Assembly: GCA_942492995.1 (NCBI GenBank)
Contig: OW818653.1
Location: forward strand, 1,500,001 to 1,532,000
DNA from: an uncultured Erysipelotrichaceae bacterium
Lineage (GTDB): Bacteria; Bacillota_I; Bacilli_A; Erysipelotrichales; Erysipelotrichaceae
Reading direction: 5' to 3'
DNA: 32,000 nucleotides
Positions 1,890 through 17,199 of the stretch are shown here, in pieces. A program made the position numbers and the translations under genes. The notes beneath the pieces were generated by a model, which made no database searches, had not been told where the DNA came from, and worked only from the letters and a program-made list of their open reading frames with translations. Every line of letters begins with the position of its first letter. Within the stretch, counting starts at the first letter, position 1.

Positions 1890-3716
1890 TTATTTTTTAT
1901 ATTCGAGGTAAATTCCTGCAAATGGCGCAATTCTGACTAAAATACTATGATCAAATCGATGCGATTCAATCGGTTCACTATTTACCGGGAAATAATTGCA
2001 CATATTACATCCATCATAAATATCCTTTTCGGTATTTAATACCTCAGTATAAACCCCTGCATATGGAACTCCAAAGCGATATGATTCATACGAAGCTGGT
2101 GTCATATTAAATATACATAATACAACGGATTGTTGGTCTTCACGATAGAACGAGTAAATAGATTGTGACGCATTATCCGCATCGATCCATTTGAATCCAT
2201 GATGCTTATAATCGAGATGACTTAAAGCACTATGATATTTATACACATGCGATAAATCACGTACATAACGATTAAACGCATTATGTGAATAGTAACCCAA
2301 CAAGAACCAATCTTGTTCTACGTTCTCATCAAACTCTCTAAAGTGCGCAATTTCATTGCCCATAAAGTTTAATTTCTTACCAGGATGAGCATACATATAC
2401 GCATATAAGTTACGAGCTTGCGCAAACTTTTGTTTGTATTCGCCCCACATCTTATTCACAATTGTGCCTTTACCATGTACAACTTCATCATGTGATAAAG
2501 GTAATATAAAGTTCTCTGAATAGAAATATGCCATTGAGAACGTTAATTGGTGATGATGGAATTGGCGATAGATAGGATCTAAACTATAGTATTTTAAGGT
2601 ATCGTTCATCCAACCTAAATCCCATTTATAATCAAATCCTAAACCCATTTCAGTTGTTGGATGTGTTACTTTAGGGAAATCAGATGAATCTTCTGCCATC
2701 ATCGTAATACCAGGATAGCGAACATTAAGATAGTAATTAAGTCTACGAACAAACGCAGTTGCGCCATCATTCGATCCGTTATTCTTATTCCCATGCCAAT
2801 AGATGATATTTGAAACCGCATCGATTCTTAATCCATCCACATGATACATTTCTACCCAGAAACTAGCAGAAGACATTAAGAAACTACGGACTTCTTCTTT
2901 CCATAAATCAAAGTTTAAGGTGTCCCATTGACTGTTCGCATCACTTGAATTTGGATATTCATACAGTGGTGAGCCATCAAATTGACGTAATCCATACGCA
3001 TCCTTCACAAAATGAACAGGTACGAAATCGAGGATAACACCGATTTCATTTAAGTGACATTCATCCACAAACGTCATGAATTGTTTAGGGGTGCCATAAC
3101 GACTGGTAAGCGAGAAATAGCCATGAGCTTGATAGCCCCATGAACCATCAAAAGGATATTCGGTTAATGGCATTATTTCAATATGTGTGTATCCCATTTC
3201 TTTAATATATGGGATTAATTTATGCGCTATTTCTTCATAATTAAACCATTCATGTGCATCGCGCTTCATCCAACTTCCAAGATGTAATTCATAGATATTA
3301 ATTGGTTTATCAAACCCTTTTTCTCTACGATTTACCCACATCGCATCACGCCATGGGAAGTTATGTAAATTAACAACTAAATTAGCACTCTTAGGTCTAA
3401 GTTCTGACGCAAAGGCATAGGGGTCACTCTTTTCAACCCATTCACCACTTGATTGTTCAATACGATATTTATACATTGTCCATTCTGCCACATCTGGCAC
3501 AAAGACTGTCCAAGAACCATCTTCTAAACGAGTCAATTCAACTGGTTGACTCCAATAGTTGAATGAGCCAAGTAACTGAACTCGTTTTGCATGAGGTGCA
3601 TATACTGTAAAACGAACCCCAGGCGCATTATCATAATCAAAATGAGCACCAAATACTTTATGTGCGTCTAAACAATGTCCTTGATGAAATGATTCCACAA
3701 TTTTTTGTTTATACAT
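1890..3716 (-). CDS. glgB: 1,4-alpha-glucan branching enzyme (GH13)
   Basis: 608 aa. GH13 catalytic motifs are present: DGLRIDAVS, MMAEDSS, LSHDEVVHGK. The N-terminal region has a CBM48-like sequence (VRFTVYAPHAKRVQLLGSFNYW). Confidence 0.93.
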   Translation of the reverse strand: MYKQKIVESFHQGHCLDAHKVFGAHFDYDNAPGVRFTVYAPHAKRVQLLGSFNYWSQPVELTRLEDGSWTVFVPDVAEWTMYKYRIEQSSGEWVEKSDPYAFASELRPKSANLVVNLHNFPWRDAMWVNRREKGFDKPINIYELHLGSWMKRDAHEWFNYEEIAHKLIPYIKEMGYTHIEIMPLTEYPFDGSWGYQAHGYFSLTSRYGTPKQFMTFVDECHLNEIGVILDFVPVHFVKDAYGLRQFDGSPLYEYPNSSDANSQWDTLNFDLWKEEVRSFLMSSASFWVEMYHVDGLRIDAVSNIIYWHGNKNNGSNDGATAFVRRLNYYLNVRYPGITMMAEDSSDFPKVTHPTTEMGLGFDYKWDLGWMNDTLKYYSLDPIYRQFHHHQLTFSMAYFYSENFILPLSHDEVVHGKGTIVNKMWGEYKQKFAQARNLYAYMYAHPGKKLNFMGNEIAHFREFDENVEQDWFLLGYYSHNAFNRYVRDLSHVYKYHSALSHLDYKHHGFKWIDADNASQSIYSFYREDQQSVVLCIFNMTPASYESYRFGVPYAGVYTEVLNTEKDIYDGCNMCNYFPVNSEPIESHRFDHSILVRIAPFAGIYLEYKK

Positions 3717-3736
3717 ACGGACCCCCTAATCCTTGT

Positions 3737-5422
3737 TTATTCAAGGTGTGTCTTTAATGCTTGATTAATTGAATTAAACTTCGCTTTAACGTCTTCTTCA
3801 CTATTTCCTAAGACACAGAAATAGAACTTACATTTTGGTTCAGTTCCTGATGGACGAATCGCCAACCAAGTCCCATCTTCTAAATAATACTTAATGACAT
3901 CAGATGCAGGGAAATCCAAAGGACTTATAACATTATTCTTGGTCTTCTGTTTAAGTAGATAATCTTCTTTACCGATAACCTTGATACCCGCAAACTCTTC
4001 AATCACGTTATTTCTAAAATGATTTAATATCGCTTTAATTCTCGCAGATCCATCACTACCTTTTAGTGTTAATGATACTTGATCTTCATGATGATAACCA
4101 AAACGTTTATATAAATCATTTAATACATCGACGAGTGTTAAACCTTCATGTTTATAGTAACTAATACATTCCGCAATTAATAAACATGCTTGTATCGCAT
4201 CTTTATCACGTACAAATGGTTCAACTAAATACCCATAACTTTCTTCATAACCAAACACAAAGTTCTTTTCATGGGTAACTTCATATTTCGCAATTTTTTC
4301 TCCAATAAACTTAAATCCGGTTAATGTCTTTTCAACTTCTACTCCATACGAGTTTGCGACCTTCTCACCTAAATCAGATGTCACAACCGTATTAAAGATA
4401 ACTGGGTTTACTGGTAATGTGTTTAATTGTTTCTTCGTTTTTAACAAGTACTCGATTAGAATAGATCCAGTTTGATTACCCGTTAATAAAACATATTCAT
4501 TATTATGCTTAACCACAATCCCAACACGATCCGCATCTGGATCAGTACTCAATACCCCATCCGCATTCACTTTACGAGCTAGCTCAATCGCTTTCTCATA
4601 CGCTACTTTTTCTTCTGGATTTGGTGACTTTGTGTTAGGGAATTCTGGATCAAAAGTACATTGTTCATCGACAAGAATATATGGATAACCTGTTTTATTA
4701 AACACTTCCGTTACTGGCATTAATGCGGTGCCATGTTGGGGAGTAAAGACTAAACTAATATTTGATTTATCCATTTCAGGACGATTTTCGATTTCAATGA
4801 CACGTGCAATGTACTTATCATCAATTTCTTTATCAATCCAGTGGACTAACTTAGTTTGTTCATCGCTTAAATGAACTTCTATCGCAAGTTCATCTTTAAT
4901 ATTATTAATTTCAAATATAACTTGATCAATAAGTTCAGGAATTAACTGACATCCTCTATTATCATAAACTTTATATCCGTTATATTCTTTTGGATTATGG
5001 GATGCTGTAATTACGATACCACCTTCACAACCTAATTCACGTACTGCATACGATAATTCAGGTGTAGGTCTAAGTGACGTAAAAACATAGGTAGGGATAT
5101 TAAAACTTGCTAATACGTTCGCAGATTCAACCGCAAACTCATAGGACATATAGCGATTATCATAGGCAATCGCAACACCTGTATTAAATACATTTGGATA
5201 TTGACTTAAATAACGTGCAAATGCGACATTTGCTTTACGAATTGTGTGTATGTTTAATCGATTACACCCAACGCCTAACAAACCACGCATCCCTGCAGTC
5301 CCAAATTCAAGATTCGTATAAAATGCATCTTTTAATTCTACTTCACTTAATCGATTTAATTCTTCTTTAAGCTTAGGATCTAAATTAGGATGATTCTTCC
5401 AATGTTGAATTGTTGTTTCCAT
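3737..5422 (-). CDS. pgcA: alpha-phosphoglucomutase (phosphohexomutase family)
   Basis: Phosphoserine loop TASHNPKEYNGYKVY and metal loop DPDADRVG. The track ORF starts at 5461, but that stretch overlaps the ptsH terminator hairpin. ATG 5422 (METTIQHW) follows AAGGTGA and is the better start. Confidence 0.9.
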   Translation of the reverse strand: METTIQHWKNHPNLDPKLKEELNRLSEVELKDAFYTNLEFGTAGMRGLLGVGCNRLNIHTIRKANVAFARYLSQYPNVFNTGVAIAYDNRYMSYEFAVESANVLASFNIPTYVFTSLRPTPELSYAVRELGCEGGIVITASHNPKEYNGYKVYDNRGCQLIPELIDQVIFEINNIKDELAIEVHLSDEQTKLVHWIDKEIDDKYIARVIEIENRPEMDKSNISLVFTPQHGTALMPVTEVFNKTGYPYILVDEQCTFDPEFPNTKSPNPEEKVAYEKAIELARKVNADGVLSTDPDADRVGIVVKHNNEYVLLTGNQTGSILIEYLLKTKKQLNTLPVNPVIFNTVVTSDLGEKVANSYGVEVEKTLTGFKFIGEKIAKYEVTHEKNFVFGYEESYGYLVEPFVRDKDAIQACLLIAECISYYKHEGLTLVDVLNDLYKRFGYHHEDQVSLTLKGSDGSARIKAILNHFRNNVIEEFAGIKVIGKEDYLLKQKTKNNVISPLDFPASDVIKYYLEDGTWLAIRPSGTEPKCKFYFCVLGNSEEDVKAKFNSINQALKTHLE

Positions 5423-5432
5423 GTTCACCTTA

Positions 5433-5459
5433 TAATAAAAAGAAGATGAGATCATCTTC
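5433..5459 (-). terminator. intrinsic terminator after ptsH
   Basis: On the minus strand the stem is GAAGATG / CATCTTC (5442-5448 / 5453-5459) with a 4-nt loop, followed by TTTTTATTAT. Confidence 0.7.
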
Positions 5460-5476
5460 ATTTTATGACATTCTAT

Positions 5477-5743
5477 TTATTGAATGACCTTTTGAGTTCT
5501 TAGTACATCTTCGATCGTCTTGATTGCTTCTTCTTCGTCTTCACCTTCACAAGAAATCATGACTTCTGATTGAGTAGGAATACCCAATGACATAACGCCC
5601 ATAATAGATTTCATATTAACTGAACGACCTTTAAACGCAACCTTGACTTCACATTTGAAACGGCTAGCTGCACTTACAGCTACTGTTGCTGGACGTGCAT
5701 GCAATCCTACTGGATCAATTACTAAAACATTAATTTGCTTCAC
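5477..5743 (-). CDS. ptsH: phosphocarrier protein HPr
   Basis: 88 aa. His15 site GLHARPA and Ser46 site MKSIMGVMSLG are both present. GTG start at 5743 with AGGAGGG 8 nt upstream. No ptsI lies next to it in this window. Confidence 0.9.
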   Translation of the reverse strand: MKQINVLVIDPVGLHARPATVAVSAASRFKCEVKVAFKGRSVNMKSIMGVMSLGIPTQSEVMISCEGEDEEEAIKTIEDVLRTQKVIQ

Positions 5744-11450: not shown

Positions 11451-13408
11451 TTTTCATCCTCTTGTGCTAACCATTGTTCAATAACAAGTTCTAGTTCAAC
11501 TAAAATTTGTTCAACACTGGTATTATCTCTTTGTAATGCGGCAGCGGTAAAGTGACCGCCTCCACTCATTTTTTCCATTATAACATGAACGTTGATATTC
11601 CCATTCGATCGAGCAGAAATACCCACTGTTTTTTCACTAATTTTTGATACAACAAATGACGCTTCAATATCTTTAATGATAAGTAAACTATTCGCTACTT
11701 GTGATATTAACGCACGATCGAGAATTGTATCATCTTTCATCGATGCGACCACAATACCCTTTTTAAATCGAGTAAGGTTTTGCATCAACTTTGTCTTAAG
11801 TATAAATTCTTGATAATTATCTTTTAAGTAATTATCACATATGATAGGATCTGCTCCATATTGTTTTAATAAAGCGGATACTTCAAATGTACGACTTCCT
11901 GTACGTGTACGGAATCGATTTGTATCAATCAGAATACCTGTTAGCGCAAAGTTCGCTTCTTCTTCTGTTAACTCAATTGTATTCTGTTGATATGGAATAA
12001 GCTCAGTAACCATTTCGGTTGTACTAGACGCAGCTGTTTCCATATAAACTAACAATGGATTGAAGCTATAATCTTGGTTTCTTCGATGATGATCAATTAC
12101 AACAATCTTCTTAACTCTCTCAAGTATTTGAGGTAATGATGATTGAGTTGCTAAATGATGGTCCACCATTATTAATAGTGTTCTCTCATTAATTAATGCG
12201 TATATTTCATGTTCTTTGATGAAATGATGTTCTTTATTAAATTTTTCTTTTTCAGTCGCATACGCTAATGATAGTTTACTCTCTAATGCACCATGCATAA
12301 TGATTGATACTGGTATGTTGTATGATCCAACAATCTTACTTAATACAAGTGCTGAACCGAAACAATCAAAGTCCATATCTTTATGTCCAAGTATCATTAC
12401 GTTACTTGAATTAACGATTAGTTCTTTTAAGGTTTGTGCAATTACACGAGCACGTACTTTACTACGTTTCTCAACAGCTTCACTACTTCCACCCATATAA
12501 ATAACATCTTCGCCATAGGACTTAATCGCAACTTGATCGCCACCTCTACTTTGAGCTAACGCTAGTGCCCCATTCACCATTTCTTCAAGTTCTAAGAACT
12601 CAAGCGATCCACGTGCAAATGCCATGGAAAGTGTAATTGCGACATCTAGCTCAGAGGATGCTTCACGAATGATTTTAAGGATAGAGAATTGTTCCTCTAC
12701 CATTTGTTTAAATAACATCTCATTCAACACCAATAACATTCTATTGTTTCTTAATCGTTTAATAAATACACCACGATCATTTGCCCAATGATATACAGCC
12801 TGTCGTATTTTACTATCGATCAATGAAATGCGTTGTTCTTCTTCGTATTGTGTTGTTTCTTCGTAGTTATCAAAATGGATCAACCCTAATACGATTTGTT
12901 TATCTTCACTTGCGACTCTAAGTATCGTTAAATCTGTCACATCTTTAAAGAAAAGTGTTTGTCCATTTTCTTTACGTCTAATCTGATAGATATGATCATT
13001 AATCGTGACTTGTACCATATCTGCTTCGTTATTAAATAATAACTTAGTCTCAGGTAACCAATTCATAATCTTCTGTCCTATGACATCGTATGCACGTGTA
13101 TGTAGAAGTTCACTTATCCAAGTAATTTCATAATTATGATCAATGGTTAATAAACCTAATTCACCAAAAAGGAACGCTTCTTGTGAATCTTTACCAAGAA
13201 TTTTAGAAATGGTTAATAGTCTTTCATTATGATATTCTTCTGAATATTCCATGAACACAATAATTAATACAATATTAACCAACGCAAAGAATCCGTCCAC
13301 AATCGAAAAAGGCAGTCTAAACAAGGTGTGACTGAGTCCTAATGCGATAACTTCTATGGCTAAAACGAGCCACATAAGACGTTTTACTTTTTTATATTGA
13401 TTAAGCAT
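11447..13408 (-). CDS. gdpP: cyclic-di-AMP phosphodiesterase, GdpP/YybT type (2 TM, PAS-like, degenerate GGDEF, DHH/DHHA1)
   Basis: 653 aa with two N-terminal TM helices, DHH motif (VIDHHRR) and GGGH motif ([11 protein letters not shown]). Conserved yybS-gdpP-rplI context. Confidence 0.9.
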
Positions 13409-13411
13409 ATT

Positions 13412-14320
13412 TTATAGTGTAATGAGTTCGATTCGTTTACGTATATCCGTAAAACAATCCAATAGTCCTAATCCAATGAAAACATAGATTACAAGACTTG
13501 GCAAGAAAAGAAAACCTAATAAGGCGAAAGTGGTTACAGATTTATTACCTGTTCTTTTACCATAGAACTTGATTAAGCAAAACCCATAAAATGTAGCTAT
13601 TAATTGTGAGAACACACCTAAATTTATTCCAATAACTTGATAAGTAACAGAACTTGTAGTTACCAAGTATTTTCCTGAAAATAAAGCAATTGTCACTATG
13701 ATTCCAGCCCAAATTGGTAATCGTAATGATTCTATTGGTCTAGATTTTCTATATGAAATCTTTAATCTTCTTAATAATACTATTGATATCATATGAATTA
13801 TTAACGCTTGCATGATAGACATGGTTATTAATAATAATGGAATCAACGACAGGATCAATGCTTCACCATTCAATATTGCCGCAAACTCTGGTATTTTGGA
13901 TAATTCAGATACAACTACGTTTATTTCAGTAACAATATCATAACCAAATAGCTTAGCTAAAACATAAGTTTCAAGAAAAATACTAATTGAATTAACAATT
14001 ATAGATGTTGTAATAATCCAGTCGTTCGTACGATTCTTTATTATTCCATACCCGTACACTAAGCCTAAAATTAAGCCTGTGAAAGTATAGAATAAAGTAG
14101 TAAATTGACCTAACATCAACGTTAAAATAATAGCTGATGTAAATAAAATTATTCCATTCTTAAAACCATATCTAATTGTATAGATAATAATTGGAATAGG
14201 AAATACAAATACAAAATAGGATTGTAATAACAATCCAAACTGTAAATTTAAAAATAGGAGAATACCAATAATGCCAAGCATTACTGATCCTTCTGTAATT
14301 GTGCGTACTTGTTTTTTCAT
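13412..14320 (-). CDS. polytopic membrane protein, YybS-like (DUF2232-type)
   Basis: 302 aa and highly hydrophobic. It occupies the conserved position between rpsR and gdpP. Confidence 0.7.
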   Translation of the reverse strand: MKKQVRTITEGSVMLGIIGILLFLNLQFGLLLQSYFVFVFPIPIIIYTIRYGFKNGIILFTSAIILTLMLGQFTTLFYTFTGLILGLVYGYGIIKNRTNDWIITTSIIVNSISIFLETYVLAKLFGYDIVTEINVVVSELSKIPEFAAILNGEALILSLIPLLLITMSIMQALIIHMISIVLLRRLKISYRKSRPIESLRLPIWAGIIVTIALFSGKYLVTTSSVTYQVIGINLGVFSQLIATFYGFCLIKFYGKRTGNKSVTTFALLGFLFLPSLVIYVFIGLGLLDCFTDIRKRIELITL

Positions 14321-14331
14321 ATATAAAGTTA

Positions 14332-14356
14332 AACCTCCACCGACATAGTGGAGGTT
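14332..14356 (-). terminator. hairpin (probable partial terminator) between rpsR and yybS-like gene
   Basis: 9-bp GC-rich stem AACCTCCAC / GTGGAGGTT with a 7-nt loop. The tail on the minus strand is TAACTTTATAT, which is only moderately U-rich. Confidence 0.5.
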
Positions 14357-14363
14357 ATAGTTT

Positions 14364-14594
14364 TTAGTCGGCTACGTATGGTAATAAAGCCATTTGACGT
14401 GCACGTTTTACTGCAGTTGCTAGAATACGTTGGTACTTAGCTGCTGTGCCAGTCACACGTCTTGGTATAATCTTGCCATTTGCAGAAATGAAACGTTTTA
14501 ATAGTTCTAAATCTTTATAGTCAATGACAGTGATGTTGTTTTTTGTGAAGTAACAGACTTTTTTGCGTACTGTTCTTTGTTTTTTGAATGCCAT
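14364..14594 (-). CDS. rpsR: 30S ribosomal protein S18
   Basis: 76 aa; [37 protein letters not shown] is typical of S18. Confidence 0.95.
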
Positions 14595-14609
14595 GAGATG
14601 CTCCTTTCG

Positions 14610-15056
14610 CTAAAATGGTAGGTCATCGCTGGAGATATCCAGTAATGGTCCTGTGTTGAAATCATCGTCTGAAACATCGTTATCCGCAAAGTATCCTGTA
14701 GATTTCGGTGCTTGTTGACTTGGTTGTTGTGTTTCGCTAGAATTGCGAGATCCGATAAGTTGGACATTATCTGCAGTCACATCCGTCGTATAGACTTTCT
14801 TGCCTGTAGTTTTATCATCATAACTTCCCGTTGTAATATGTCCTTCAACCCCAACTGTGCTTCCTTTTTTAGCGTATTGATTCAAGAAGTCAGCGGACTG
14901 ACGCCAAGCAATACAACTAATAAACGAAGTTTCATCGTTCTGTCCAAACTTACGATTTACAGCAACTGTAAAGCGTGCGTAGGATATTCCCGACTGGGTT
15001 TTAAAGTATTGAGGATCTCTTGTAAGATTGCCTACCAATACAACACGGTTAATCAT
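14610..15056 (-). CDS. ssb: single-stranded DNA-binding protein
   Basis: OB-fold N-terminus MINRVVLVGNLTRDPQ and acidic C-terminal tip DDLPF. Confidence 0.95.
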   Translation of the reverse strand: MINRVVLVGNLTRDPQYFKTQSGISYARFTVAVNRKFGQNDETSFISCIAWRQSADFLNQYAKKGSTVGVEGHITTGSYDDKTTGKKVYTTDVTADNVQLIGSRNSSETQQPSQQAPKSTGYFADNDVSDDDFNTGPLLDISSDDLPF

Positions 15057-15067
15057 AATTTCCCCTT

Positions 15068-15358
15068 TTACTTATCTTCTAAGTTTAATACTAAGAAACG
15101 TACAACATTTGTGTTAATGCGTGCTAGACGATCGAACTCTTTTACCGCCGCTGGCGTAGTTTCAACCTTAATAACACTGTAATAACCCTTCGTCATATCA
15201 TCAATAGGGTACGCGAATTCGCGAAGTCCCCACTCATCAACGTGTTTTACCGTTCCCCCATCAACAGATAGGATTGCGTGTAAATTCGTAACAAGCTCTT
15301 GACGTGCAGCTTCTTCTAAAGTTGCTTTGACGATGTACATGATTTCATAATTTCTCAT
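15068..15358 (-). CDS. rpsF: 30S ribosomal protein S6
   Basis: 96 aa, MRNYEIMYIV..., at the conserved rpsF-ssb-rpsR position. Confidence 0.95.
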   Translation of the reverse strand: MRNYEIMYIVKATLEEAARQELVTNLHAILSVDGGTVKHVDEWGLREFAYPIDDMTKGYYSVIKVETTPAAVKEFDRLARINTNVVRFLVLNLEDK

Positions 15359-15424
15359 GTGTTCACCTCCTTGTGGTCAATTGGCCTTTTCAGGCAAGGA
15401 GTAAATAAATTTTATCTACTCGTG
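15359..15424 (-). promoter_or_regulatory. rpsF 5' leader with SD-sequestering hairpin (candidate S6:S18 autoregulatory leader)
   Basis: In the mRNA, CUCCUUG (15401-15395) pairs with CAAGGAG (15373-15367), which is the rpsF Shine-Dalgarno sequence. An inner GCC-UGAAAA-GGC hairpin lies between the two arms. Confidence 0.45.
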
Positions 15425-15430
15425 CTTAAG

Positions 15431-15459
15431 ATTATACCATTCAAACAATGAAAAGTAAA
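15431..15459 (-). promoter_or_regulatory. sigma-A-type promoter of rpsF-ssb-rpsR
   Basis: On the minus strand: -35 TTTACT (15459-15454), 17-nt spacer, extended -10 TGgTATAAT (-10 hexamer 15436-15431). Confidence 0.6.
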
Positions 15460-15691
15460 CTCTATTTTTGATACGCATATTGAGTAATTACTCAACCTTT
15501 TTTTAAGAAATAAATAGATACCAAATCAAGATAATTTTTTCTCTTAATCTTGGGATTGATATCAAATTTAATTTAACATCTAAACTAATGAACTTATATA
15601 AATTAGCTAATTCATGTAGAACTACCTTACCATTTTTTCAAAAAATATCTCTACACCTTTTTAAATTTAGTCACTTTTAAATCAAACAAGT

Positions 15692-16504
15692 CTATTTCAC
15701 AAACATATATTGATATTTACGCATTTGATTGAAAATAATATTTTTCACTCTTTCTTTTACTTCTTTGGAATAACAACTATTGTTATCTATAATTTCTTCA
15801 ACATTCTTTTTATTAAAATTAAACTTCATATGCCTACCATAGACTTTTTCAATAGTATCAAGTTGATCATCAAAGTTATCGCAAAATGTTTTTGATTTCA
15901 CTTTCTTCATTAAAAGAAATATGTCCTTATTCATTGGATAATCCACTTTCGTGTCTGATAACAAACTCGCACCATTATCGAATATTGGGCAATAATGATA
16001 ATTTCCTTCGTTATCTAATAAAACAGCAATATTATGTGTATGCCTATCTTCATTTAAAAAAATCGCATCTATTGCTAGTAATTTACTCATGTATTCTCCA
16101 AAATCTTCTAAGTTCGTCATCCTAATTGTTTGTTCAACCAGAAATTTGATTCTATTTTCGTAAGACTCAATTGAAAATATATTTTTATGTAAGCTCTGAC
16201 CATAATAACTAATGAATAATCTCTCTAATGTAATTAATTGCCAACCCTTTGGCAAGAAATCTTTGCTTTTGCATCCTAGAAAATTCGTTTCACTATATTC
16301 AATTTCAACCGAATCATATTCTGTATATTCTTGTCCCTTTAAATTAGAAAACTTTAATAAATTAGATATTACATATTCCGCAAAGCCTTCATATCCTGTA
16401 TAGTCCGCTTTATACCACGTTTTATCAAAGTACCACTTCATTTGATTGCCTTTTGAAGATTGGACCGTGTTAGTTTTTATGTCATTTTCATCTAATTTAA
16501 TCAT
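15692..16504 (-). CDS. short HipA-family Ser/Thr kinase (core kinase only, HipT-like), putative toxin
   Basis: 270 aa. Gly-rich loop S16-S-K-G-N-Q-M-K23 resembles HipA S-x-x-G-x-Q-x-K. Catalytic loop N151-E-D-R-H-T-H-N158 resembles HipA D-x-H-x-x-N. Metal-binding I-F-D176-N-G. No N-terminal subdomain precedes the Gly-rich loop. SD GAGAGG overlaps the upstream stop. Confidence 0.7.
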   Translation of the reverse strand: MIKLDENDIKTNTVQSSKGNQMKWYFDKTWYKADYTGYEGFAEYVISNLLKFSNLKGQEYTEYDSVEIEYSETNFLGCKSKDFLPKGWQLITLERLFISYYGQSLHKNIFSIESYENRIKFLVEQTIRMTNLEDFGEYMSKLLAIDAIFLNEDRHTHNIAVLLDNEGNYHYCPIFDNGASLLSDTKVDYPMNKDIFLLMKKVKSKTFCDNFDDQLDTIEKVYGRHMKFNFNKKNVEEIIDNNSCYSKEVKERVKNIIFNQMRKYQYMFVK

Positions 16505-16508
16505 ACTA

Positions 16509-17063
16509 TTACCTCTCTAGTTTAATCCAAAATTCATCATCAGCCATTTTTCCATTAGTCTTCTCTATAATCATTAATGGTTCATAAAATGGTATATCAA
16601 GTTCTCTTAAATATAATTTCAAATTATCACGACTGCGCGGTAAGCATCTTGTTTCAAGAAATTCCTCATATTCTTGATATGTTGGGTTTTCATTATTACC
16701 AAATGCACGATAGATTAAATCACCAGTGTAATTTCGAATAGTTACTTTTCTGTTTTTTTCATCTACATCTATTATTGTACAAACTTCATTTCTAAACATA
16801 TACCATATGCGTAACCGATGCTTCATCGGAAATATTCTATAGTTCATTACAAACTCTGGGTTTTCATTTAACATTTTTATTAATGTAACAATGGGTCCTT
16901 TAATCAAATCAGTACTTGACTCCCATTTTTCTATTGTTTTGGTTGAAGCATTAACTAAACTTGAAAATTCTTGTTGAGTTAAGTTCAATTTCTTTCTTAT
17001 GTTTTTGATTTCTATACTTGATAATCGATCACTTATCGCAAATAAAGGTCTATTTTTAGTCAT
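16509..17063 (-). CDS. XRE-family HTH protein with C-terminal HipS-like / HipA-N-subdomain-like extension, putative antitoxin-repressor
   Basis: 184 aa. HTH at residues about 17-70 (IRKKLNLTQQEFSSLVNASTKTIEKWES...KGPIVTLIKMLNENPEF). Residues about 82-184 (RLRIWYMFRNEVCTIIDVD...YEEFLETRCLPRSRDNLKLYLRELDIPFYEPLMIIEKTNGKMADDEFWI) follow the HipS / HipA N-domain pattern F-F-x-N-L-L-P-E-G-x-x-R ... L-G-I ... L-L-x-x-x-G-x-D-x-x-G-A. GGAGG lies 7 nt before ATG 17063. Confidence 0.6.
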   Translation of the reverse strand: MTKNRPLFAISDRLSSIEIKNIRKKLNLTQQEFSSLVNASTKTIEKWESSTDLIKGPIVTLIKMLNENPEFVMNYRIFPMKHRLRIWYMFRNEVCTIIDVDEKNRKVTIRNYTGDLIYRAFGNNENPTYQEYEEFLETRCLPRSRDNLKLYLRELDIPFYEPLMIIEKTNGKMADDEFWIKLER

Positions 17064-17081
17064 ATTTTTACCTCCATTTAA

Positions 17082-17110
17082 ATTATACCCTATATTATAG
17101 GGTTTATCAA
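17082..17110 (-). promoter_or_regulatory. near-consensus sigma-A promoter of the HTH/kinase pair
   Basis: On the minus strand: -35 TTGATA (17110-17105), exactly 17-nt spacer, -10 TATAAT (17087-17082). The predicted start site falls at or near the GGAGG, so the leader would be very short. Confidence 0.55.
17087..17103. promoter_or_regulatory. operator-like perfect palindrome ACCCTATA-T-TATAGGGT
   Basis: 17-bp perfect inverted repeat filling the -35/-10 spacer of the promoter above. Confidence 0.6.
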
Positions 17111-17119
17111 TGTATATTT

Positions 17120-17136
17120 ACCCTATTTTATAGGGT
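17120..17136. promoter_or_regulatory. second operator-like palindrome ACCCTAT-TTT-ATAGGGT
   Basis: Same 7-bp arms as the first palindrome. Its centre is 33 bp from the first centre (about 3 helical turns), upstream of the -35. Confidence 0.55.
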
Positions 17137-17164
17137 TATTTAGAAAATTGTCATATTATAACTT

Positions 17165-17195
17165 AAATAAAAAAGACTACGCGTTAGCGTAGTCT
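17165..17195 (-). terminator. intrinsic terminator of the PTS operon
   Basis: Stem AGACTACGC / GCGTAGTCT (17174-17182 / 17187-17195), 4-nt loop, followed on the minus strand by TTTTTATT. It lies 5 nt after the EIIC stop. Confidence 0.85.
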
Positions 17196-17199
17196 AAGA

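Follow-up and report, generated by a model that had tools for sequence, protein, structure and literature searches.

The question raised by this locus is how a HipA-like kinase that lacks N-subdomain 1 could be kept in check when only one other gene accompanies it. The locus lies in a 32,000-nt stretch of contig OW818653.1 (the window; positions given here are those of the whole window) and consists of two minus-strand genes: the upstream one encodes a partner that begins with an XRE helix-turn-helix (HTH), and the downstream one a short kinase. Both proteins have so far been annotated only as 'hypothetical' or 'HTH domain-containing'. An earlier reading of the DNA from its letters (the sequence-only reading) proposed that the functions of HipB and HipS sit here on one polypeptide, in a two-gene arrangement, and this is supported by the predicted fold of the partner and by comparative genomics. 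It is concluded that the apparent HTH-HipS fusion with a short kinase is an unannotated variant of the Hip systems, which is widespread in gut Firmicutes.

The kinase was aligned with 45 relatives, which are 55-70% identical. The alignment has four invariant motifs: the Gly-rich loop, S16-S17-K18-G19-N20-Q21-x-K23; the motif W30-Y-K32-A-D; the catalytic loop, N151-E-D153-R-H155-x-H-N158; and the Mg-binding loop, F175-D176-x-G178. The three HipA kinase signatures named in the sequence-only reading are among these. The distance from D153 to D176 is 23 residues, the same as between D309 and D332 in HipA. Pfam HipA_C (PF07804), which has a gathering score of 30.5 bits, matches residues 113-197 below threshold (19.9 bits, E = 6.5e-4), and it matches 45/45 relatives in the same way (all sub-threshold, best E = 2.2e-4). 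PI3_PI4_kinase also matches 8 of the 45. The HipA_C profile thus falls short of its own score, but the motifs, their order and their spacing are those of HipA. Seven PADLOC models of PDC-M03A, a candidate defence protein, match the kinase (best 2.6e-10), and a profile of the kinase family gave one match among PDB sequences, namely CtkA (3akj, E = 0.0064).

Alignment with HipA was made using hhalign. At default settings only the catalytic and Mg loops of the kinase family align with the HipA core (P = 0.018). With a more diverse alignment and greedier settings, kinase residues 10-257 are colinear with HipA 144-426 (P = 0.002), pairing S16, G19, Q21 and K23 with HipA S150, G153, Q155 and K157, K32 with K181, D153, H155 and N158 with D309, H311 and N314, and D176 with D332. 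The alignment begins past N-subdomain 1 of HipA, which indicates that the kinase consists of the core only, as the sequence-only reading had supposed. A homologue on the Alkalihalophilus pseudofirmus OF4 plasmid pBpOF4-02, which is 41% identical to the window kinase (E = 2e-30), scores above the thresholds of both HipA_C (30.6 bits) and PI3_PI4_kinase. A Clostridium butyricum protein named 'HipA domain-containing protein' by NCBI reaches 36.7 bits with HipA_C, and aligns with the kinase family profile with an hhalign probability of 93% (E = 3e-7). These transitive links strengthen the call. Sequence comparison therefore supports the kinase as a remote relative of the HipA/CtkA superfamily that lacks N-subdomain 1. 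The family is large, comprising 3085 clusters at 90% identity.

The partner begins with an XRE HTH that is of the MqsA/HigA2 type. Residues 15-74 are matched by Pfam MqsA_antitoxin (26.8 bits against a cutoff of 30) and HTH_3 (22.0 bits against 23), and NCBIfam TIGR03830 matches at 2.6e-12, each of these profiles scoring just under its curated cutoff. HigA2 is found among PDB sequences at 4e-7. The AlphaFold model of the full-length partner has a predicted local distance difference test score (pLDDT) of 91.6 and places the HTH helices at residues 16-75, and a Foldseek search with this model shows the HTH to resemble HigA2 and MqsA, with E-values from 3.6e-4. Family matches and model helices agree with the sequence-only reading, which had put the HTH at about residues 17-70. 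The partner is conserved over its full length in 59 relatives, which are about 180-204 residues long, and its family comprises 173 clusters at 90% identity. The HTH and the domain that follows it are encoded in a single open reading frame (ORF) of 184 residues, and not in separate genes as in the three-gene HipBST.

No Pfam, NCBIfam, PADLOC or PHROG model matches the C-terminal domain. It is nevertheless well conserved, the invariant residues being R85, Y88, D99, A120-F-G122, F135, R139-C140, P142, D146, P158-F-Y160, G171, D176 and W179. In the full-length model its secondary structure has the order β-β-β-α-α-α-β. When this model was compared with the PDB using Foldseek, the sole non-HTH match of good probability was E. 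coli HipS (7ab3_E), with a probability of 0.92 and a template modelling (TM) score of 0.59 on HipS.

A second model was made of residues 75-184 only (pLDDT 79.4), and was also compared with the PDB. HipS or HipA N-subdomain 1 occupies 22 of the top 23 places (ranks 1-20, 22 and 23). The HipS chains are from E. coli (7ab3), Legionella (8ezr and 7vkb) and Haemophilus (7czo), and the HipA chains are from E. coli (many, 3tp*, 3dn*, 2wiu and 4yg7) and Shewanella (4pu3-5). The TM scores are 0.46-0.66 over 94-110 columns (102-110 in all but one), with TMq 0.46-0.62 and, for the HipS chains, TMt 0.52-0.66. The next-ranked unrelated matches have TM scores of about 0.2 and probabilities below 0.1. As a negative control the same model was compared with BFVD, a library of viral predicted structures, and gave only low-probability noise. 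The predicted fold thus supports a C-terminal domain of the HipS / HipA N-subdomain 1 type.

The sequence-only reading had also taken the partner to be a repressor. In agreement with this, two 17-bp palindromes of the form ACCCTATAWWATAGGGT (ACCCTAT-N3-ATAGGGT) lie 33 bp apart upstream of the partner gene. No other copy of the pattern is present in the window, where chance alone would give 0.03 matches. In 44/76 related loci the core motif CCCT-N7-AGGG is found no more than 170 nt upstream of the partner gene. It is present twice in 27 loci, with a spacing of 32-33 bp in all 27, and there is no copy elsewhere in 584 kb of related loci. Both motif and spacing are kept across genera. This phylogenetic footprint is strong sequence evidence for autoregulation of the operon through the partner HTH, which would bind the palindromes as putative operators. 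The conserved operators are an addition to what had been proposed from the sequence, and a defined motif makes the regulation directly testable.

The genomic distribution of the pair was surveyed from both sides. In the partner-centred survey, which covered the best 80 genome loci, the downstream kinase is matched along essentially its whole length in 65 loci, is a partial match (truncated or fragmentary) in 6, and is absent in 8, with one locus being uninformative because of contig ends. Overall the kinase is directly downstream of the partner in 71/80. The kinase-centred survey covered metagenome contigs, and the partner is directly upstream in 77/78 informative loci. Partner and kinase are thus neighbours in most of the related loci. 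Partner relatives are encoded by at least 529 species-level genomes, mostly of gut Lachnospiraceae and Erysipelotrichaceae, and the closest relatives of the pair are from Erysipelotrichaceae metagenome-assembled genomes.

Loss of genes is asymmetric. The partner is retained beside a deleted (8) or truncated (6) kinase, that is in 14/79 informative loci. Five loci (L012, L031, L049, L063 and L077) have intact partner genes followed by kinase fragments, and at L031 and in the proteins P0300 and P0313 a deletion fuses the C-terminal domain of the partner to the final 30-40 residues of the kinase. These fragments and deletions suggest that loss of the kinase with the partner kept is recurrent. Mean identity is highest in the C-terminal domain (67%), followed by the kinase (59%) and the HTH (49%), and the pairwise-identity matrices of domain and kinase are correlated (r = 0.79, Mantel p = 0.001).

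A search with only the C-terminal domain yields 634 clusters at 50% identity. Members of this family are either stand-alone proteins of about 100-130 residues, or are fused to an XRE HTH, a resolvase-type HTH (HTH_7/HTH_23) or an AbrB-like N-terminus; the resolvase-type HTH_7 is found in 23 of 85 members. Related pairs occur on 14 viral contigs from IMG/VR (L085-L098), with the partner upstream of the kinase in 14/14, and here the partners carry a resolvase-type HTH (HTH_7/HTH_23) instead of the XRE HTH. On one of these contigs (L097) the pair, at 2394-3768, adjoins a large serine recombinase of 558 residues (4011-5687), apparently near a prophage end. Gut phage records also contain kinase homologues.

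Four Bacilli plasmids and a C. butyricum megaplasmid have the reverse order, with the kinase first, followed by a stand-alone homologue of the C-terminal domain of 129 residues. The 129-residue proteins match the hidden Markov model (HMM) of the domain with E = 1e-18 and 4.5e-7. Examples of the reversed pair are L083:2980-4167, on pBpOF4-02, and L084:2039-3306, on the C. butyricum megaplasmid, both annotated as hypothetical; the former adjoins xerS and a replication gene. In all, there are three gene arrangements in which the HipS-like domain accompanies a kinase without this subdomain. Streptococcus salivarius and S. equinus plasmids (H14-H18) also carry distant kinase homologues (about 30% identity), each over two annotated hypothetical genes.

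The sequence-only reading had taken the AT-richness of the pair to be consistent with horizontal acquisition. The GC fraction is indeed lower over the pair (0.26-0.29) than in the phosphotransferase system (PTS) and rpsF/ssb flanks (0.38-0.40), but this is not specific to the pair: the gene at 13412-14320, 3' of rpsR, which encodes a multi-pass membrane protein of 302 residues, is equally AT-rich (0.28-0.29). Low GC is therefore weak evidence of transfer and no proof. Acquisition is better supported by the plasmids and viral contigs, and by the flanking genes of the window, which are common to 0/80 related genome loci.

We consider it probable that the pair is a mobile, autoregulated, two-gene Hip module resembling a type II toxin-antitoxin system, in which the HipS-fold part holds the kinase inactive. 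The toxin would be the downstream minimal HipA-superfamily Ser/Thr kinase without N-subdomain 1, and the partner would join both accessory functions of HipBST in a single polypeptide. Its XRE HTH would bind the two operators over the promoter and repress the operon, while its HipS-fold domain would dock where HipA carries N-subdomain 1, beside the Gly-rich loop, leaving the kinase inactive. If the partner were lost, whether through proteolysis, through loss of the element or through a phage-derived signal, the freed kinase would arrest growth by phosphorylating an essential translation factor, which by analogy would be an aminoacyl-tRNA synthetase. In related systems the targets are GltX for HipA and TrpS for HipT (PMC8262856). 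The physical binding, neutralisation, DNA binding, toxicity, target and trigger in this scheme are what we infer. An inhibitor role of the C-terminal domain is suggested by the precedent of HipBST, where HipS neutralises HipT with Trp65 inserted beside the Gly-rich loop (PMC10627512), by the constant association of domain and kinase over three gene arrangements, and by the partners that outlive their kinases.

Several results weigh against this. The identification of the kinase is by sequence, and it remains under the HipA_C threshold. For the C-terminal domain, Couple_hipA (PF13657) and TIGR03071 do not match the partner at E ≤ 10, and the 25 families listed for 85 members of the domain family do not include Couple_hipA. 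An HMM of these 85 members finds no HipS in the PDB using hmmsearch, and hhalign of the domain against 12 HipA N-domains (HipA of K-12 and 11 HipA from Table S1 of PMC8262856) gives P = 0.23. By comparison, plain phmmer with the HipA N-terminus does retrieve genuine HipS (1.6e-7 to 3.7e-4). Taken singly, the Foldseek matches have weak E-values (0.07-2), the model of the domain has medium confidence, and the structural alignments to HipS and HipA have just 7-14% identity. The insignificant hhalign register places partner 142-180 on HipA 66-104, with P142-R143-S144-R145 opposite HipA P66-D67-S68-P69. It tentatively puts R145, which is more than 90% conserved, opposite Trp65 of HipS, in which case the mechanism of inhibition would not be quite that of HipS. 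Finally, there is one intact solo kinase (L150:1181-1996), preceded at a distance of 22 nt by a P-type ATPase-like ORF and not by a partner. Some subtle defect may have left it inactive, or it may be neutralised in trans.

The resemblance of residues 82-184 to HipS that the sequence-only reading had seen by eye is thus without statistical support as a sequence match, because the profile tests are all negative, although the insignificant hhalign alignment has the same register (P142 on P66). Similarity was found in the predicted structure. It is concluded that the C-terminal domain is a separate, very divergent family, predicted to share the HipS fold.

The weakness of the sequence signal is also what would be expected if the C-terminal domain were a novel and unrelated toxin-binding domain that had converged on the small α/β topology of HipS, and the module a HipBA-type pair with an unusual HipB. 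Every sequence and profile test against HipS or the HipA N-domain is negative, and the identity in structural alignments is very low. Against this, a full-length match exclusively to one fold family, from four organisms and with a sharp drop behind it, is hard to obtain by chance, the BFVD control library gives nothing, and the domain accompanies precisely those kinases that lack this subdomain, in three gene arrangements; we regard convergence as quite unlikely. The fold does, however, equal HipA N-subdomain 1 as well as HipS, and the domain could be the missing part of a split kinase, supplied in trans and needed for folding, activity or substrate choice. Any neutralisation would then be due to the HTH part or to sequestration on DNA, as with HipB. 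That the kinase is almost never found without the domain would follow from an obligate subunit as well, and both the higher conservation of the domain than of kinase or HTH and the lack of conservation of HipS Trp65 agree with it. The partners kept beside deleted or truncated kinases fit an antitoxin better than a subunit, and in the only split systems studied experimentally HipS is the antitoxin (PMC10627512 and PMC9325769). A split kinase is therefore judged to be unlikely.

The biological role of a neutralised kinase could be anti-phage abortive infection, in which a phage factor titrates or displaces the partner, as proposed for HipR/Stl, and the kinase stops translation. This would be a refinement of the neutralising module described above. 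The matches of the kinase to PDC-M03A, the related pairs on viral contigs, one of them beside a recombinase at a prophage end, and the homologues in gut phage records all point in this direction, and a defence role has been proposed for the clade XI Hip modules (PMC8262856). The window pair, on the other hand, is isolated among housekeeping genes with no defence island, and no PDC-M03 component matches the partner, and we therefore see defence as a possibility but not the likelier outcome. It is very improbable that the pair is a signalling system, in which a non-toxic regulatory kinase phosphorylates the HTH partner or a metabolic target and tunes transcription. HTH and kinase are tightly linked, and HipH/YjjJ shows that the two can be coupled within the Hip family (PMC8262856), but the variable genomic context and mobile distribution (plasmids, viral contigs and chromosomes), the recurrent decay of the kinase while the partner stays, and operators found only at the pair's own promoter are difficult to reconcile with such a role.

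Returning to the neutralising module, a wider proposal can be made, which is speculative when taken as a whole. The HipS-fold domain may be a large unannotated family that serves as the constant and kinase-specific neutralising module of a whole minimal Hip-kinase branch, occurring with at least three unrelated DNA-binding heads (XRE HTH, HTH_7 and AbrB-like) or free, with HipR and HipP being fusions of the same kind. It might act mainly as a prophage- and plasmid-borne abortive-infection switch in gut Firmicutes, and lock the Gly-rich loop by means of an Arg instead of a Trp.

The features of the locus are listed in Table 1. The ORF list agrees with the gene positions, sizes and 4-nt gap of the sequence-only reading. 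The kinase start codon (ATG, 16502-16504) is separated from the partner stop codon (TAA, 16509-16511) by a spacer at 16505-16508, and this short spacer, together with the GAGG inside the end of the partner gene, suggests translational coupling.

Table 1. Features of the two-gene module and its upstream boundary (positions in the window).
Feature	Position	Strand	Basis or remark
Short HipA/CtkA-superfamily kinase, 270 aa, putative toxin	15692-16504	-	ORF and invariant motifs
Partner, 184 aa, XRE HTH then predicted HipS-fold domain; putative antitoxin/autorepressor	16509-17063	-	ORF, conservation, AlphaFold model
MqsA/HigA2-type XRE HTH, partner residues 15-75	16839-17021	-	Pfam, NCBIfam, PDB sequence match, Foldseek
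Predicted HipS/HipA-N-subdomain-1-like domain, partner residues 82-184	16512-16820	-	Domain-only model and Foldseek PDB
GAGG ribosome-binding site of kinase, within final codons of partner	16512-16515	-	Sequence reading
GGAGG ribosome-binding site of partner gene	17071-17075	-	Sequence
Sigma-70-type promoter, best of the operon, TTGATA-17-TATAAT	17082-17110	-	Consensus match only, 11/12
Proximal operator-like palindrome ACCCTATAATATAGGGT	17087-17103		Between -35 (TTGATA) and -10 (TATAAT) of best promoter
Distal operator-like palindrome ACCCTATAAAATAGGGT	17120-17136		Overlaps -10 of second promoter-like site
Weaker second promoter-like site, ATGACA-18-TAAAAT	17125-17154	-	Consensus match only, 10/12
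Intrinsic terminator of upstream PTS EIIC gene	17174-17195	-	Upstream boundary of module, outside it

The pair sits between the PTS EIIC terminator and the promoter region of rpsF-ssb-rpsR, as had been proposed, and both boundary elements were located, the latter as a promoter-like site with an extended -10 at 15459-15431. There are no convincing direct repeats, att sites or target-site duplication flanking the pair, and no Rfam family matches within 13000-20000 of the window. The 333-nt spacer from the kinase stop to rpsF (15359-15691) has no terminator-like site after the kinase and no Rfam match, and transcription may read through from the kinase operon into rpsF-ssb-rpsR. An ORF of 156 residues with a TTG start (14712-15182, plus strand) is antisense to ssb and rpsF, and is almost certainly a spurious shadow ORF.

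Among known kinases and candidate systems outside the Hip organisations, CtkA of Helicobacter pylori (JHP0940, 3akj) has the D-R-H-x-x-N catalytic loop and F-D-x-G Mg loop in common with the window kinase. CtkA is a secreted, stand-alone, pro-inflammatory kinase, and to our knowledge it has no HTH or HipS-like partner. PDC-M03 is a PADLOC candidate defence system without a described mechanism; models of its protein A match the kinase, no component matches the partner, and literature searches found it mentioned in a single, unrelated paper. LACHF and LACHP, new kinase families of the oral microbiome, were considered and are not the family of the window kinase.

The Hip organisations described by Gerdes, Bærentsen & Brodersen (2021; PMC8262856) are hipBA/AB, hipEB, hipBST, hipH and hipL, and further hipRF, hipRG, hipIN, hipJS and hipMP. 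No short kinase preceded by an HTH-HipS fusion is described among them, and literature searches found no account of this architecture. Some come close to it. The clade XI systems hipJS and hipIN also have very short core kinases, with the Gly-rich loop near the N-terminus, and a putative antitoxin with a HipS-like domain, which in HipN is fused to a DNA-binding HIRAN domain. The order of hipJS, kinase and then stand-alone HipS-fold protein, is also that of the relatives found on Bacilli plasmids and in C. butyricum. Compared by description, the window differs from both in having the domain upstream and on an XRE HTH, rather than downstream or on HIRAN.

In hipRG, too, a short kinase follows a gene for an HTH protein, whose additional domain was named 'Stl-like' on the basis of Phyre2 (PMC8262856). 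By its description, HipG has no conserved Ser/Thr next to the Gly-rich loop, in contrast to the invariant S16 and S17 of the window kinase, and the match of Stl to the full partner model is weak (probability 0.20-0.35, TM 0.22-0.29). The hipMP system has a 'γδ-resolvase-like' partner (PMC8262856), which recalls the HTH_7 heads common in the C-terminal-domain family and the viral loci, but HipP is encoded downstream of HipM. Going by these descriptions, it is possible that HipR and/or HipP are fusions of the same kind, with the HipS fold unrecognised.

The closest comparison is with HipBST, as found in E. coli O127:H6, Legionella pneumophila (Lpg2368-2370) and Haemophilus influenzae (HI0665/0666). 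It likewise has a short HipA-like kinase without N-subdomain 1, a HipS-fold domain on a polypeptide apart from the kinase, and an XRE HTH repressor function encoded upstream, and in both systems there is a Ser three residues before the Gly of the Gly-rich loop, like S150 of HipA. HipBST, however, has three genes, while the window has two, with HTH and HipS-like domain on one protein. The window kinase is also shorter, with the Gly-rich loop at residue 16, whereas the phosphoserines beside the loop in HipT are Ser57 and Ser59 (PMC10627512). The HTH of the window partner is of the MqsA/HigA2 type, and no similarity to HipS is detectable in the sequence of its C-terminal domain, with an Arg tentatively replacing Trp65. 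HipBA of E. coli K-12 resembles the window module in its two genes, with an HTH autorepressor encoded first and the kinase second, in palindromic operators that overlap the promoter, and in colinear kinase motifs. The difference is that N-subdomain 1 is part of the toxin HipA, and HipB has no such domain, while here its counterpart is on the upstream protein.

The module would thus represent a third partition of the HipA kinase system, with the N-subdomain on the toxin in HipBA, on a free antitoxin in HipBST, and on the repressor here, and would be a natural intermediate in the change of N-subdomain 1 from a part of the toxin to its inhibitor. An antitoxin with a constant toxin-binding domain and swappable DNA-binding heads would make a tidy system for the study of antitoxin evolution, and the minimal Hip kinases may underlie persistence or phage-defence phenotypes in gut commensals.

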